This document shows, in pieces, positions 1 to 6,300 of a DNA stretch of 64,000 nt (position 1 is its first letter; each line of letters opens with the position of its first letter). The position numbers and the translations under genes were made by a program. The stretch lies in IMG/VR virus record IMGVR_UViG_3300021426_000001; one strand, given 5' to 3'. The stretch comes from a virus. Its lineage: Duplodnaviria; Caudoviricetes. The notes under the pieces are model-generated. The model did not search any database and was not told the DNA's origin. It worked only from the letters and a program-made list of their open reading frames with translations.

Positions 1-86
1 TGTGATCATATATGATGTTTCTCCTTGTAGAGTTTTAGAAATTTAGATATTTATCTGGATTTGGAAGTTCTCTGTAGTCAACTTCT

Positions 87-299
87 CTAGTCGCAGAGGA
101 GCTGCGGGCCTGAGGACTCCTTCAAGTAGTAAGTGACTTCCTCGCCAACGCTCTCGATCTTCTCGATCTCGAGGTTCATCGAAGAGAGCTTGTCCTGAAG
201 TTTAGACGGGTTGATGATGTCGGCCTCACTGAGCGGTGCTGCGCCCTGATTTCTGACTCTTCCCGAAATTACGAATCGTGTCATAAATTGATTCTCCAT
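87..299 (-). CDS. hypothetical protein, 70 aa
   Basis: ORF with phage-like codon usage; late-type GATAAATA on the minus strand at 310-317. Confidence 0.7.
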   Translation of the reverse strand: MENQFMTRFVISGRVRNQGAAPLSEADIINPSKLQDKLSSMNLEIEKIESVGEEVTYYLKESSGPQLLCD

Positions 300-420
300 T
301 TTTATTGTATATTTATCACATAGAACTAAGCTAAATCAGCTTTTGTAAAGATCTTTTTACATAAATCTTCGCAAAACGTTGAGAATTTAGAAGCTCGATT
401 CAGTATATATATTTGGATCA

Positions 421-516
421 AAAGATCAACTACTACTGGTCGAGAACAGGAGTTTTCAGATCCGCAAGGATCCAAAGATGACTTTCCGAGGTAGTAGGCG
501 GGAAGTCATCTTTTTT
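421..516 (+). ncRNA. putative ~95-nt structured small RNA: four hairpins and a loop-loop (kissing) pairing, ending in an intrinsic terminator
   Basis: Stems 424-428/437-441, 442-447/452-457, 459-463/468-472 (GCAA tetraloop) and 474-488/499-513 followed by a T-run; loop CTACTAC (430-436) is the exact complement of loop GTAGTAG (491-497). Confidence 0.55.
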
Positions 517-545
517 GTTTATCCAAGTTTACAAAACAAAACTGG

Positions 546-553
546 TATAAATA
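546..553 (+). promoter_or_regulatory. T4-type late promoter TATAAATA upstream of the large structured RNA
   Basis: Exact TATAAATA, the same octamer found upstream of many structural genes in this window. Confidence 0.7.
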
Positions 554-557
554 AAGC

Positions 558-1220
558 AACCGCAAAAGATTATTAGATTTTGAATTAGATTAGAACTGAA
601 TAGAACTGAATAAGACGATTTTTGAAGAAGAGCTTAAAAGCACTTGAAGTCACAATAAAGGTCACAATGTCGAGGAGTTCGCTCCAAAAGCATTTCGCAG
701 GGCTCTTGCTAAACAGAACTGCGATTCTATGCAGGACACATAGTCTTAATAATTTTAGCCGCACAGAGAGAAAGGGCCGAGAGGCATCTGCAGGCTGTGC
801 GCTGCTGGGGTGGACAGCTGGTCACCCGATGAAAAGTCACTCATCAATGGCCGATCTTGGTCAGAGGCAGCATGAATCCGGGCCGACGAACGAAGTCTAA
901 GTTCACGGTCTAAATAGCTGAGAAGACGAACGAGATAAAGATCCAGGTGGATCTACGCGATCTCGTTCACATAGCCGTCGCGGCATTTTCGAGATGTAGC
1001 TGGTGTACAGGGCGACCGCATCATAAGCTCGAGAAGTAAGTCCCTAGTAAAGTCGATAGAGCGAGAGGCACACTGAAGATAGCAGGAGGCCCGAAAGGGA
1101 CGCAGGACTGTGATTCTTTGGGAGTCAGAAGTTCAGGAGATTGCTAGTTCCCCGTTTTACGGGCTAGTTGTCTCCTGAGCTCCTGGCTCCTGAAGAATCA
1201 CAGGAGACTTTCTCTCTCCC
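558..1220 (+). ncRNA. putative large (~650 nt) highly structured non-coding RNA
   Basis: No credible ORF; dense helices with UUCG (678-681), GAGA (779-782) and GAAA (1093-1096) tetraloops, a multiway junction at 801-871, and a long hairpin at 1108-1203 with G-U pairs. Confidence 0.7.
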
Positions 1221-1260
1221 AAAATGTCATCATGTCAACACAAAGTCATATCAAATTGGC

Positions 1261-1348
1261 TGTTCATAAGCTGTTCATAAGCTGTTAATAGATTGTTAAT
1301 AGATTGTTCATAAGCTGTTAATAAAATGTTAATAGATTGTTCATAAAA
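1261..1348. repeat. 8 tandem 11-bp repeats TGTT(C/A)ATA(A/G)NN, DnaA-box-like or iteron array; candidate origin element
   Basis: Units start at 1261, 1272, 1283, 1294, 1305, 1316, 1327 and 1338. Confidence 0.85.
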
Positions 1349-1415
1349 ATGAGGACCGTCTTCGTTAGAAGACGGATGAGCGAAGCGAATGGATGATAGC
1401 TGTGATAAATAGACT

Positions 1416-1733
1416 ATGAGACGAGACTTCACTCCTTATCTTCAACTCATTCTAGAGGGCAACGCTTCTGTTCCCTCGTCGCTCGTGCACGAGACTTCTG
1501 ATGTCCATCGTGAGACTCAATCTCAAGTTGAGATAGTCACTCAGAGAAAGCTGACTCCGCAAGAGAAGTTCCTTTCGATGAAGACAGTGAAGCGAGAGCC
1601 GTTGAAGTCTCCGACGATCACAGTAGCGACTTTCGAGTGGACTATGGACATTCCTCTCAGTCAGCTCCGTGAAGTAGCAGCGAGAGCTAACAGAGAGATG
1701 AGAGAAGCTATAAGAGAGCTGAGAAAATCTTGA
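1416..1733 (+). CDS. hypothetical late protein, apparently leaderless
   Basis: GATAAATA at 1404-1411, then 4 nt, then ATG; N-terminal LILE motif. Confidence 0.7.
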   Translation: MRRDFTPYLQLILEGNASVPSSLVHETSDVHRETQSQVEIVTQRKLTPQEKFLSMKTVKREPLKSPTITVATFEWTMDIPLSQLREVAARANREMREAIRELRKS

Positions 1734-1752
1734 TTTTTAGGGATTTTTAGGG

Positions 1753-1781
1753 TTTACAAGAGAAACCGAAATTCCTATATT
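1753..1781 (+). promoter_or_regulatory. early promoter TTTACA-N17-TATATT
   Basis: Member of a 10-copy conserved motif; followed by GTAAAACAAA and an AAGGAC SD. Confidence 0.85.
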
Positions 1782-1823
1782 GATAGCGTAAAACAAATCA
1801 ACCTTCAACAAGGACCTATCAAT

Positions 1824-2123
1824 ATGAAGATCAAGACTTTCCAATTCCTTCTCTCCAACTTCTGCGGCAACGACCTCCACACTAACGGCTGCTTCAAAGA
1901 GAGCAAATACAAAGCTAATCAGAATACTCCGTACAGCAGCGAGAAGCAGATCGACCGAAAGCTGAATCGCTGGATCGAGAAGAACAATCCGATCATTCAC
2001 GACATCAAGATCACTACTTACACGATCGACCGCCACAACAACGGCGGAGACGACACTGTGGCTGCTATCTACACGATCACTTACGATCTTCCGGCTGGCG
2101 CAGAAGTCAAGGAGGAAGCATAA
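1824..2123 (+). CDS. hypothetical early protein
   Basis: Early promoter and SD directly upstream. Confidence 0.8.
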   Translation: MKIKTFQFLLSNFCGNDLHTNGCFKESKYKANQNTPYSSEKQIDRKLNRWIEKNNPIIHDIKITTYTIDRHNNGGDDTVAAIYTITYDLPAGAEVKEEA

Positions 2124-2614
2124 TGAGTGTAAATGAGGGAATCATCTACGGAATCATCCTCAGCTTGATCCTCGTATGCATTGGAGGCGGGCTTCACAAG
2201 CTTGACGATCTCTACAACGACAGAGCTGCTCAGAAAGCTTCTCAGGTCATTCCAGAAGATCTGCGAAAGCTCCAGAAGCAAGAAGAGTCGCTCGGCGTCA
2301 CTCAGTGCAAGAAGATGCCTCGGGTGAGCAACCTAGAAGAGTCATGGGCGTGCACTGCTGAGCTGCCAGACGGAACTGTCAAGAAGATACTCTTCGATCA
2401 GTCCACTTTCGACGGAAGAGCGTGCTCAGTCACTATCGTCAAGCCCGACGAGTCTATCGAGAAGCGCGCATACAGCGGAGACGGTCTCCACGTGAAGCGA
2501 AAGACCGTCATCGAGGATGTCAAGACTCGAAAGAAGACCAAGGGAGAGACCGTGGAAGAGCTAGATCCATCAACGTGCCTGTACTTCTTCCAGCAAGTCA
2601 AGCTCGCTATGTGA
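2123..2614 (+). CDS. hypothetical membrane-anchored protein
   Basis: TAATG overlap with the upstream gene; N-terminal hydrophobic helix GIIYGIILSLILVCIGGG. Confidence 0.75.
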   Translation: MSVNEGIIYGIILSLILVCIGGGLHKLDDLYNDRAAQKASQVIPEDLRKLQKQEESLGVTQCKKMPRVSNLEESWACTAELPDGTVKKILFDQSTFDGRACSVTIVKPDESIEKRAYSGDGLHVKRKTVIEDVKTRKKTKGETVEELDPSTCLYFFQQVKLAM

Positions 2615-2620
2615 TCCCTG

Positions 2621-3310
2621 CTATGTTACTTGGAAGAATCCCTGAGGATCGAACTTCACTTCGTACTTAGTGCAGGGCATCAGAGACTCGAAGTCAATGA
2701 ATCCGATCGGGTAGATGGTCTCTACCCCTTCGTGTTGTTTCTGTACTCCAATCAAGCATCCGTTAGCGACAGACAGAGAAGATCCAGAGTACGTGATGTT
2801 CTCGGCTCTGACTCCAGGAGCATCTCCGTTCAGGAAGGTTAGCGGCACATGGTACATGTCGTACTCGGCTTCGTCGAAGTTTCTCTTGAACGGCATGTAG
2901 CCTCTCAGAGCTTCGACTGGATTCTCAGAAGGCTCTCTGTTGCTGTTCAGCTCGGCGTTGTAGTTCGCCTTCTTCACGAACGAGTCTATGTAAGTAGACT
3001 TGCTTAGATTCTCTTTCATCGGAATGTTGAAGACTTCCTCGTATGTCTTGTCCGTCTCGTTGTACAGTCCGTTCGAGTCACAGACCCACGGCCTAGCGTC
3101 CATTCTCGATGACGGGTATGTGAACTTAGAGTCGGATACGAACAGGCCAGAGACGCCCTCTAGGCCGATTCCAGGGAAGTCGTCTGACGGCTTGAAAGTG
3201 TCCCAGTCTCCAGAGGTCGTGAGGTACGCGTGAAGATCATCGTACGTGTCCGACTTTCCCTCTCGGCTGAAGAGATAGTCTATGAACTGCGGATATGCTT
3301 TGTATTTCAC
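2621..3310 (-). CDS. putative virion structural protein (small phage beta-rich family)
   Basis: C-terminus ITYSGSSLSVANGCLI...PIGFIDF...EVKFDPQGFFQV resembles a widespread ~150-aa phage structural family; AGGAGG SD. Confidence 0.55.
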   Translation of the reverse strand: MKYKAYPQFIDYLFSREGKSDTYDDLHAYLTTSGDWDTFKPSDDFPGIGLEGVSGLFVSDSKFTYPSSRMDARPWVCDSNGLYNETDKTYEEVFNIPMKENLSKSTYIDSFVKKANYNAELNSNREPSENPVEALRGYMPFKRNFDEAEYDMYHVPLTFLNGDAPGVRAENITYSGSSLSVANGCLIGVQKQHEGVETIYPIGFIDFESLMPCTKYEVKFDPQGFFQVT

Positions 3311-3319
3311 TTGTTCCTC

Positions 3320-6300
3320 CTAGTCTGCGTCGATCTCGGCGAGAAGTCCGTAAGCGGAAGTCGCATCCTTCGGACCGAAGTCGTGTCTCTCAGGGAACTC
3401 CCAGATGTAGCAGCCAGAGTCGATGTCTCTTCCGTACCCAGCGTCAAGCATACAGACTAGATCGTTGTTCTTCTTATCTACAAGGAGCATTCCTCGATAG
3501 TCGTCTCCCTTGACTGCTATGCCCTCGTCGAACCATGCGCCTGGCTTAGAGTTGTCGTCTCTTCTGTTCATGAGCTGGATGAGAGCCCACTCGGACGGCA
3601 TGTAGCCGAGACGGACGCATCCGCCGTCGTTCATGCACTCGTCTGCGCCCTTCATAGCGTACTTCAGGAACTCTATTCCGTCAGACTGCTTGTCGATCTG
3701 GTGGATCCAGAGACCTCTTGTCTCCTTCTCTCTCACGTTAGCGTACATCACGTGGAATGAGAGCTCGTGGTTGTCAGTCGGACCCATGTCGTAGTCCCAC
3801 GTGAAGTAGCGGTCATGGATTCCGTCTTCGATTCTTCTCATGTAGAAGTATAGCATCCAAGTGTTGAAGTCTGTCGGCATGTTCGACACCTGAACGTCCT
3901 GATGTAAGTTTATCGGTGAGGAGATTATTGACTTGTACAGCTTCGTGAATGCGAAGTTCGGAGATCCGTCTAGGAGCTGCTGGTAGATGTCGTAGTAGTC
4001 AGAGTTCGGAGAGTCACATGTCGGAGACATGTGAAGATCTATCTGACCGACAGAGACAGCTCCCGTGCTCTTCACCAACTTGAGTCCGTCAACCCTGATC
4101 AGGTGCGTCGGGAAGAGATGGTAGCTCTTGTTCATGTTGTTTCTGATGCTGTTCTCTCCAGCGACAGAGCCGAAGCTGTAGAGCTCATCAGTGCTGATCG
4201 TGTACTTCTGGTCTCCCTCTACCTGAGTCGGATTCATCGGAGACATCGGAGTCGTCTCGTTCCAGATCGGCCAGTGTCTTCTATCGAGCCAGTTTCTCGT
4301 GAGACCGAACATCTTCAGATCATCCCAAGCCTTGTCTGCGAGAGATGTCACGTTGTGCATGATGTTGATAGCTTCTGGATAGTTCGAAGACTGGAACGGC
4401 ACATACTGTGAGTCAGACTGTGTGATTCCAGATCTCTTCATGAAGAAGTTGTTGTAGTCGAGGACGTTAGATATGTTAGCCCACTCGATGAACGGCTTGA
4501 AGATTCTTGAGTTGACTTTGTCGAACTCAGCTTCGAATCCGTCCCATAGCTCGATGTTTCTGAATCTCGTGACTTGAGCGTCTTGCTGAAGAAGCATCAG
4601 ACCGTTAGTGTTGCAATCCTCTCGCTCGAATCCAGGGAACGGGCTTGTGCCGATCTCGTTCTGGTGATACTCGTAGACTGGAGCGACGAGTGCGAACTTG
4701 CTAGCGATTCCGATGACGCGATCGTTAGCGTCTTCGCTTCCGTAGTAGTCTGGAGAAGCGTTAGTCAGACGGTTGATGAAGTCAGCAGCGCTCTTTGTCA
4801 TAGAAGCTCTCACGTTCATGATGCTTCCACACTCAGCCTTGTTGAACGTTCCGGTAGCTTCTGACTCTGGCTTTTGGGTTCCGTCACTGCGAAGTCCAGA
4901 CTCGAAGTTTCCGTACTCGATGAAGCGCTCTGAGTGGTTGATCATGCCAGCTACTGCGCCGATGTTGTAGATAGACTTGAGCTGGAATCCTATCTGAGTT
5001 CCGTTCGTCTCGTTCACGTCGTAAGCGGGAATCAACGGCCAGAACTTCACGTGGCGCTTGTTGTACTTCATTCCCTCGACTCCACTGAACTGATTTGCTA
5101 GATCGTGAGTGAAGGTCTCCACGTTCAAGTCATTCTCCATGCTCGTCTCTTCTACGGCAGAGATCGGGAGATAGATTCTGCTGATCGGGACTCTGAGCAG
5201 CACATGGATCATCTTGTGGCTCTTATCTTCTTCTTGAGGTCCAAAGATAGTTATGTCAACGAACATGTCGTCCAGATTTCCGACAGCTCTCTTTCCGTCA
5301 CCTGTCGCGGTGTTGTTATGAGCGATATGGTTTATCTTTCCAGTGCCGTCCTCGTTCTTGGTCACGAGATAACACGGATCACCGTCTCTCTCAGTGTAGT
5401 ATATTCCAGACTTGCTTACGTCTGTGTTCTGGAAGAATCCGACCTTAGTAGCTCCGTTCTGTGTTCTGCCAGCTAGAGGAATTCTGATCTTCTCGATTCT
5501 AGCGCTCCACTGCTCGCCGAGAATGAGGTTCAACTTCTCTTCGCCGCTCATTCCCTCCATCTGCTGGGCTTCCTCTTCCGTCACCATAGACTCTAGCGTC
5601 TTCGTGCTTCCGAGGATTCCAGCGACGATGGATTCAGCCTTGTCATCGAGATCTAGATCAGATGGAGCAGCTCTCAACGGTGTAACTTCGATGAGACTTC
5701 TCTTGACGCCGAACTGATCCTGCGTCAGTCTATTGTTGTCAGTCTGCATCACGGCATCCCACATCATATCTTCTCTGATCGAGCAGAACATGTTCGGATT
5801 GTTTGCGTGATCATTTATGATGTCCGTAGTGAGGAATCCGAATGAGTCGTTGCTCACTGGATTCTTTGCTGCAGGGCCGTCTTCTCCAGCAGCGTAAGTT
5901 CCAGGAGGCATGTACCAGCAGAAGTCTGGACCGTTGCTTGGAGAGCTGAACAGGTTCTTTGGTGCATTTGTCTCATTCGGACCGGTAGCAGACGGGATGA
6001 CGAACTTGCTATTGTAGTCTGACGGGAGCCAGCTCTCAGAGCGGTTGCAAGTTCCGAAAGGACCGCCATTCTCTTGGTTGAACGGACTCTCGTAGCCCGG
6101 ATAGATGACGTTTGGATCAAAGGCAGAGTTCGACAGCATGTCGCAGCCGAGAGCTACCTTGGCGTTCATTATGTTTCTAGCGAATCCGATAGCGTTCTGT
6201 CTCGTTGATCCGTGTGCGCTGTTGTTGAAGACCTCGCCGTACTCTAGAGCGTCAGCGAGGCTTATGTCATTGAGGCCACCTGGATTGTCTCTCTCGTCGA

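Follow-up and report, generated by a model that had tools for sequence, protein, structure and literature searches.

The gene-free locus and its conserved core

The DNA analyzed here, a stretch of 64,000 nucleotides (nt) referred to as the window (IMG/VR record IMGVR_UViG_3300021426_000001; Duplodnaviria, Caudoviricetes), comes from a distant T4-like myophage, with PHROG matches to the tail sheath stabilizer, SbcC-like gp46, topoisomerase II, NrdD and the baseplate wedge, and DNA near-identical to it is present in ruminant gut metagenomes from ten studies. At about 560–1220 its plus strand carries the gene for a structured noncoding RNA (ncRNA), which is homologous to a family of phage RNAs with covarying structure, has the Rfam motif cow-rumen-2 as its core and is present in RNA libraries. 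The gene lies in the only long gene-free stretch of the window (300–1415; the next largest gap is 165 nt), as recognized in an earlier note made from the sequence alone, between the minus-strand open reading frame (ORF) 87–299 and the plus-strand ORF 1416–1733. The only ORFs of at least 60 amino acids (aa) inside this gap are 622–900 and 1235–1432, both mechanical, the latter sitting on the repeat array that directly follows the RNA (1258–1345; eight 11-bp-phased copies of TGTT(C/A)ATA(A/G), 88 bp). ORF 622–900 is judged not to be coding because close relatives carry frameshifts in it: a 1-nt insertion after 752 cuts it to 45 codons in L079, a metagenome contig that is 96% identical over 300–1428, and the variants in RNA libraries X16 and X17 contain two 1-nt insertions inside it.

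Rfam 15 was used to scan the whole window at gathering thresholds, which gave no match, and positions 300–1500 at E values up to 10. In the second scan, cow-rumen-2 (RF02947) matched 934–1048 on the plus strand over the full model (1–106) with 58.9 bits and E = 4.4e-10 (cmscan); the remaining matches at E ≤ 10 were microRNA-type models matching the long hairpin. The ROOL, GOLLD, OLE, RNase P and intron models gave no match at E up to 10 over 300–1500, and ARAGORN detected no tRNA or tmRNA in the window, in line with the absence of tmRNA, RNase P and group I or II intron hallmarks reported before. The accompanying suggestion that the ncRNA might be new holds insofar as nothing matches ROOL, GOLLD or OLE, but the sub-threshold, highly significant cow-rumen-2 match of the core partly removes that novelty. 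The window RNA does not found a new category: Rfam already contains the core of its family, of which it is a divergent and expanded variant. Novelty lies in the phage origin of the family, in its true size and modular architecture, and in the window member that falls under the threshold. Annotation pipelines miss this RNA because its lineage falls below the Rfam threshold. Cow-rumen-2 originates in the 224-motif survey of Weinberg et al. 2017 (PMC5737381) and is listed among the R-scape-improved families of Rfam 15, with two pairs added (PMC11701678); a full-text literature search, which did not extend to the supplement of the 2017 survey, found it named only in the table of the Rfam 15 paper.

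The window and the motif, both from the rumen, align over all 106 model positions, and the nested cow-rumen-2 helices are all present. Hairpin 1 (928–968, with a 9-bp helix at 928–936/960–968) is followed by the AGCCGNC linker, a bulged-U helix (982–984 with 1040 and 1042–1043), a second helix at 987–993/1028–1034, the 7+4 internal loop AUGUAGC/UAAG and the ACAGG-NNGA-CC apical hairpin, with further pairs at 1001–1003/1021–1023 and 1010–1011/1016–1017. Across 31 aligned sequences, the window itself among them, 35 columns are invariant, and all 35 are present in the window. The invariant nucleotides (AGCCG.C, GAUGUAGC, UACAGG, GACC, UAAGC and GUAAGUCC) are mostly unpaired and lie around a pseudoknot described below. 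Differences from the motif are equally clear: the window RNA is 4–6 times the length of the model, hairpin 1 is extended and branched, the family sequence AGCCGCCA becomes AGCCGUCG in the linker, and the apical loop changes from AUGA to GCGA. Two other interpretations of the core were rejected. A protein-coding core is suggested by an ORF from AUGG to UAG in L020, but the corresponding frame stops after two codons in L001 and L010 has no AUG; in the resemblance to the P4 element of RNase P (AAGUCC / GGCUU), strand order and context differ and there is no covariance model match.

The exact octamer TATAAATA is found on the plus strand at 546–553, immediately 5′ of the RNA. The window contains 13 copies of it against 0.26 expected (about 50-fold enriched), mostly 5–50 nt upstream of ORF starts, many of these ORFs being structural genes. 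From this enrichment and its placement just upstream of ORFs, TATAAATA has the characteristics of a T4-type late-promoter motif here, which upholds the proposal that the RNA lies downstream of such a motif; late transcription of the RNA, with TATAAATA as its start site, is predicted from the motif. The sites (for example 16420, 26924, 28999, 31251 and 46678) together constitute a late-promoter map of the phage.

A family of modular RNAs in rumen phages

A blastn search of 400–1450 against GenBank phages gave no match, and relatives sought in IMG/VR via the flanking 105-aa protein were not found. A search pattern derived from the core (ATGTAGC-N6-ACAGG-NN-GACC-N6-TAAGC) matched 38 loci in IMG/VR viral contigs, including contigs of 230–424 kb, 71 loci in JGI and other metagenomes, almost all ruminant, and nine loci in species-representative metagenome-assembled genomes of inconsistent taxonomy. 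The last are in bins labeled Bacilli, Lachnospiraceae, Methanobrevibacter and Succinivibrionaceae, several on contigs of 170–270 kb, and we read them as mis-binned phage contigs. Clustering of the family set (about 110 loci) at 93% identity gave 32 clusters, which include one false positive (L039) and the near twin of the window (L079), that is, about 30 lineages. L039 was the only addition made by a looser second DNA pattern; it is GC-rich, looks protein-coding and has none of the other family elements. All representatives scanned are true cow-rumen-2 matches, with 88–113 bits as compared with 58.9 for the window, and the motif always sits in an ORF-free gap (360–935 nt in all but one cluster of viral loci). 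An orphan Rfam motif that previously came from unclassified rumen DNA only is now placed in phages, and the existence of about 30 defined lineages raises the question of why phages of many kinds need the cow-rumen-2 fold.

The family RNA is about 330–450 nt long, modular and pseudoknotted, with the 106-nt Rfam motif as its core; the full RNA exceeds the catalogued model three- to sixfold in size, and its 5′ domains are swappable. The Rfam entry describes neither the 5′ domains nor the 3′ hairpin reported here, nor an origin in phages. A promoter-like element, TTTACA-N17-TATAtT(TG), lies no more than about 10 nt ahead of a 5′ domain, after which come one or two variable hairpins, the core, a linker and a 3′ hairpin with UUCCUnnAUAGGCUnAnnGUCUC at its tip. 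The common 5′ domain reads AAGUC-UAUUUCCUC-GGAaCGAAG..CAAcUCAAUG..UCGGUA-GAGGGAUAG-CC (in short, AAGUC..UUCCUCGGAaCGAAG..CAAcUCAAUG..UCGGUAGAGGG). Two helices within it covary: 90% of cells are paired, as compared with 38–49% when the partners are slid, 11 of the 16 pairs have double changes, and none of 500 shuffles reaches the observed score. A covariance model of this domain (R1) matches 78 of 100 loci, with a single copy in each. Other 5′ domains exist, namely type B, with GGUCUUCCUAAAG and GAGGCACCUAA, in 17 loci, and a further type (type C) in L045/L096. Rfam scans of a type-B RNA (L061) and the type-C RNA of L045 gave only cow-rumen-2, their 5′ domains being uncatalogued, and a scan of the L020 RNA gave no ROOL or GOLLD match, the common 5′ domain likewise being uncatalogued.

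All nested helices of the core covary across the family. G-U pairs are frequent in the covarying helices of the family at large (at one pair, U-G in 18 of 22 sequences). The pseudoknot joins the strand just 5′ of hairpin 1 to the 3′ side of the apical hairpin (columns 26–27 with 104–105). Pair 27–104 is C-G in 23 sequences, U-A in eight and unpaired in none, and pair 26–105 is U-A in 20, G-C in eight and A-U in two. The pseudoknot is in competition with one of the nested pairs of the Rfam structure, and the two pairs that Rfam 15 added may include it. Farther downstream, 76 of 110 loci contain a single match to the pattern of the 3′ element (TTCC-N(2-14)-GGCT-N5-TCTC), located about 90–115 nt after the core where checked. 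A single 415-kb phage (IMGVR_UViG_3300028832_000001, 415,750 bp) contains three diverged copies, L023, L032 and L036, which belong to three different clusters; two of them have the common 5′ domain and one the type-B domain. Separately, L001, L003, L020, L035 and their relatives have a second copy of a short linker-hairpin segment in the 3′ tail, and the two copies vary together from lineage to lineage (ACAGAU, ACGGAAUAU or GACGAUA, each present twice), which suggests two alternative pairings or a symmetric contact.

Promoter types differ within the family. Two copies of TATAAATA directly precede the homologous RNA in L045/L096; the RNA follows TATAAATA in two T4-like lineages (the window and L045/L096) and a sigma-70-like element elsewhere, and the timing of expression may differ between phages. 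In L045 (1–590) and L096, a gene for a phage sigma-70-family factor lies upstream of the RNA (ORF 546–1046 nt upstream of the core). The window also has TTAATAATTTTAG at 746–758, just 5′ of the structured domain, which resembles the TTAGTAATTTT(T)AG element (TTA(A/G)TAATTTTAG-like) ahead of the L110 and L010 RNAs and might be a second, family-type start.

Fold, divergence and possible expression of the window RNA

The plus strand of 546–1225 folds with a minimum free energy (MFE) of −234.5 kcal/mol (z = −7.8 relative to shuffles), as compared with z = −2.7 for the minus strand, substantiating the earlier proposal, drawn from stable tetraloops and G-U pairs, that it functions as plus-strand RNA. 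The description of a highly structured RNA of ~650 nt stands for 757–1222 (~460 nt; z = −6.1) and fails for the ~200-nt leader at 558–756, which folds no better than shuffles (z = −0.73). When read against the sequence, every helix proposed in the earlier note proved complementary. The AU-rich, lineage-specific 5′ leader (558–756), which is covered by RNA-library contigs, contains the local hairpins GGAG-UUCG-CUCC (674–685) and UCGCAG/CUGCGA (695–700/719–724). Variant X16/X17 has a compensatory change in the first of these (A676C/U683G, converting an A-U to a C-G pair). No counterpart of the leader is found in other family members, the RNAs of which begin right at the 5′ domain. A tandem duplication of TAGAACTGAA at 581–602 is 22 nt shorter in the variant from run X16, which indicates that the leader tolerates length changes.

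Beyond the leader, hairpin GCACAG/CUGUGC (761–766/795–800) encloses GCC-GAGA-GGC (776–785), and a domain-closing helix is predicted at 765–774/1208–1217 in both the MFE and the centroid structures; known relatives are identical at the hairpin and the closing helix, so no covariation can be read there. The lineage-specific 5′ domain (801–927) comprises a four-way junction (801–871), closed by GCUGC/GCAGC (801–805/867–871) and with arms at 808–812/823–827, 828–832/841–845 and 848–852/859–863, then a hairpin (881–910, helix 881–885/906–910) and a linker. On the 3′ side of the core, the linker to the 3′ hairpin (1049–1108, placed by the nhmmer family-profile alignment) carries an insertion with CCC-GAAA-GGG (1090–1099) and leads into the long terminal hairpin (1109–1202; MFE −66 kcal/mol). 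The 3′ strand of the predicted closing helix, CUUUCUCUCU, lies within 1203–1222, where the RNA probably ends; both the MFE and the centroid structures contain it. A scan for intrinsic terminators after the RNA gave no clear one, the single weak terminator-like site being at 1187–1206.

Profile searches extend the homology beyond the core. With nhmmer, the profile of the common type reaches only the core (962–1050, E = 6e-13), and the type-B profile gives one colinear match over 957–1184 (E = 5e-13), in which the window has ~85 nt inserted. The conserved 3′ element, UUCC...GGCUnnnnGUCUC (family form UUCC..(A/G)GGCUnnnnnUCUC), is found at 1148–1174, 120 nt after the core. This is the single match of its pattern in the 64-kb window and is also aligned colinearly by nhmmer; the probability of a chance match is 0.23 for any site in the whole window and of the order of 3e-4 at the right place and on the right strand. 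Because the 3′ element sits at its tip and is aligned colinearly, the terminal hairpin is identified as the family 3′ hairpin, lengthened by about 20 bp. The region 761–927 (hairpin, four-way junction and another hairpin) is either private to the window lineage or too diverged to recognize; R1 has no significant match in the window, and a MAFFT match of UCAAUGG at 844–850 to the family loop CAAcUCAAUG, which may be chance, was set aside. The related phage L110, whose downstream array is 85% identical to that of the window, nevertheless has a compact RNA of ~340 nt with the common 5′ domain, which argues that the expansion of the window RNA is recent on the scale of the family. The window copy is the most divergent and most expanded version of the family.

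Parts of the stretch occur in six metatranscriptome runs. Contigs from four runs, representing four ruminant studies, were compared with 1–6000 and jointly cover 447–1140: those of X19 cover 447–580 and 630–975, those of X10 499–675 and 704–1099, those of X17 566–1084, and those of X16 511–1140. The uncovered stretches (for example 1201–1400 in three runs) are uninformative. In X16, mean word depth, a single figure per contig, is 109.6 over the RNA as compared with 6.1, 13.4 and 8.2 over neighboring genes of the same variant phage; together with the library contigs, this is a weak hint that the window RNA is expressed. Between the X16 variant and the window, 14 of 630 RNA positions are changed, as compared with about 6–7% in the flanking genes.

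Candidate roles, neighboring genes and minor features

We consider it likely that the plus-strand gene at ~560–1220 stands alone and that its product is a trans-acting, structured ncRNA of an uncultured T4-like rumen phage, in the family built on the cow-rumen-2 core; trans action itself, and any partner, we infer. The functional body would be the closed multi-helix domain of ~460 nt (761–1218), with the conserved center (934–1048) and the tip of the terminal hairpin (1148–1174) as the parts homologous to the phage RNA family, to which the window version would add a private 5′ domain, longer stems, inserted hairpins and the ~200-nt leader behind the late-promoter motif. Such an RNA would act in trans as a folded particle and would in this respect resemble the phage-borne ROOL and GOLLD RNAs; its invariant unpaired nucleotides and pseudoknot could together make up an active or binding site that engages a partner shared by many hosts or phages. 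Trans action is favored because the RNA has its own promoter-like element, lacks a fixed neighbor and occurs as three paralogs in one jumbo phage, because ~35 invariant, mostly unpaired positions surround the pseudoknot in phages of very different types, and because in one lineage group it is placed at the end of tRNA arrays, as are ROOL and GOLLD.

Clustering of all ORFs within 4.5 kb of the RNA, in search of a conserved partner protein, yielded no family present in more than five of 31 lineages; the neighbor families that are shared include SbcC/SbcD-like proteins, tail tube, head closure and proteins of no assigned function. In L012, L026, L046, L047, L049, L058 and L089, the RNA lies on the same strand directly after arrays of 12–25 tRNA genes, the last tRNA ending about 60 nt before the promoter-like element, and L096 has an 11-gene tRNA array about 2 kb from the RNA. 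Because tRNA genes are nearby in the L047/L026/L048 group alone, plus L096 at a distance of 2 kb, such adjacency was rejected as a general trait of the family. ROOL (RF03087) and GOLLD (RF01998) are likewise large, intricately folded RNAs, often borne by phages or prophages and sometimes beside tRNA genes (PMC5737381), and in four lineages of the present family the RNA directly follows, or is within ~2 kb of, an array of 11–25 tRNA genes. In contrast, size and conserved sequences differ, and neither covariance model matches even at E up to 10. Homo-oligomeric cages have been seen by cryo-EM for ROOL and GOLLD (bioRxiv 10.1101/2024.12.08.627333).

Several observations weigh against a stand-alone, trans-acting member of this family in the window. 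Its cow-rumen-2 score of 58.9 is below the curated gathering score of 66. The common 5′ domain is not detectable in the window, where the best match of R1 lies elsewhere (E = 0.14), and the covarying pseudoknot is not evident at its canonical site, AAG 923–925 being unable to pair with GCA 1018–1020; GCG 957–959 could pair with 1017–1019, but from inside the loop of hairpin 1 and in a different topology. The helices of 761–927 and 1049–1108 are almost without comparative support, as only near-identical relatives are known, and in L079 the change U844A would break the proposed pair 829–844. The RNA evidence consists of assembled metatranscriptome contigs, possibly with DNA among them, from which ends, strand and timing cannot be read. 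Finally, a gene on the same strand follows the RNA closely in 23 of 30 lineages.

The last point is also the main attraction of a cis-acting role, in which the RNA would be a structured 5′ untranslated region controlling elongation, stability or translation of the next gene or operon, in the manner of a riboswitch or of antitermination. The next gene starts within a few tens of nucleotides of the RNA 3′ end in about ten of those lineages, and a promoter-like element always precedes the RNA. Co-directional neighbors are, however, the default in densely packed phage genomes; the downstream genes come from unrelated families (among them a tail tube protein, a 999-aa protein and a 455-aa protein, the latter two without assigned function) and are on the other strand in seven of 30 lineages, and in the window the next plus-strand ORF begins only beyond the 88-bp array, about 200 nt from the RNA. 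We therefore regard a cis-acting leader as unlikely. Still less credence is given to the absence of any functional RNA, with the locus being a small or decaying protein gene (ORF 622–900) or spacer DNA with chance helices: there is indeed a 92-codon ORF with a TTG start, and the leader has no more structure than its shuffles, but the frameshifts in close relatives, the match of the core to a curated RNA family, the higher conservation of the RNA than of the neighboring genes and z values of −6 to −8 make this highly improbable.

An origin-linked RNA, the transcript or the transcription of which would prime or activate replication at the array (1258–1345), was the alternative raised in the earlier note, which proposed a primer for the adjacent array. 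The RNA ends about 40–50 nt before the array, the locus is at a switch of gene orientation, and the order of RNA then array, with a shared GTCATCA spacer block, is kept in L110 despite its compact RNA and unrelated flanks. T4 origins offer a precedent, as does transcriptional activation of the lambda origin. In T4, the primer RNAs of oriF and oriG form R-loops but are otherwise ordinary transcripts that lack a conserved fold, and oriE bears iterons; the window resembles these T4 systems in being T4-like and in having an RNA gene that abuts a repeat array in a noncoding region. In contrast, the fold described here is conserved across ~30 lineages, mostly without repeats. The array is found downstream of the RNA in only two of ~31 lineages (window/L079 and L110), with no such repeats within 335 nt in the other ~29, so a primer function is not borne out for the family as a whole; moreover, a primer needs no conserved pseudoknotted fold with 35 invariant positions, and the array is a putative origin. 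Replication priming is accordingly a quite improbable role, and the RNA is probably neither an mRNA leader nor a replication primer, while the conserved order leaves room for a possible local link between RNA and array in window/L079 and L110.

Few RNAs combine a large, structured form with many invariant unpaired nucleotides, and earlier ones proved to be ribozymes, riboswitches or RNA-only assemblies. Beyond the trans-acting reading favored for the window RNA, we raise the tentative possibility that the cow-rumen-2 motif is the visible tip of an unrecognized class, standing beside ROOL and GOLLD, of large (330–660 nt), pseudoknotted, modular RNAs of many unrelated rumen phages, organized around an active or binding site of ~35 invariant nucleotides and carried by T4-like phages, by 400-kb jumbo phages with three paralogs and by phages with big tRNA arrays. 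Such a class may consist of ribozymes or self-assembling particles acting on a universal host target. If the class exists, the window copy shows how far the scaffold can be expanded with the site retained.

Other features of the locus lie outside the RNA. The array is 85% identical in L110 though the flanking genes are unrelated, and the L079 array contains a 42-bp insertion, equivalent to about four extra repeats. Between the array and ORF 1416, a hairpin at 1356–1375 (CCGTCTTC-TAAC-GAAGACGG) scores as a minus-strand terminator, and the L079 changes C1357T and G1374A are compensatory within it. Farther downstream, a TTTACA-N17-TATATT element is found at 1753–1781, ahead of ORF 1824. Upstream of the RNA, 386–520 holds a candidate small RNA, in which a sigma-70-like promoter, TTTAGA-16-TATATT (386–413), precedes a hairpin GAUGACUUUCC...GGGAAGUCAUC plus U6 (478–516). 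The RNA-library contigs covering 447–580 and 499–675 extend into this element, and read-through from it may be the source of the RNA coverage upstream of TATAAATA.

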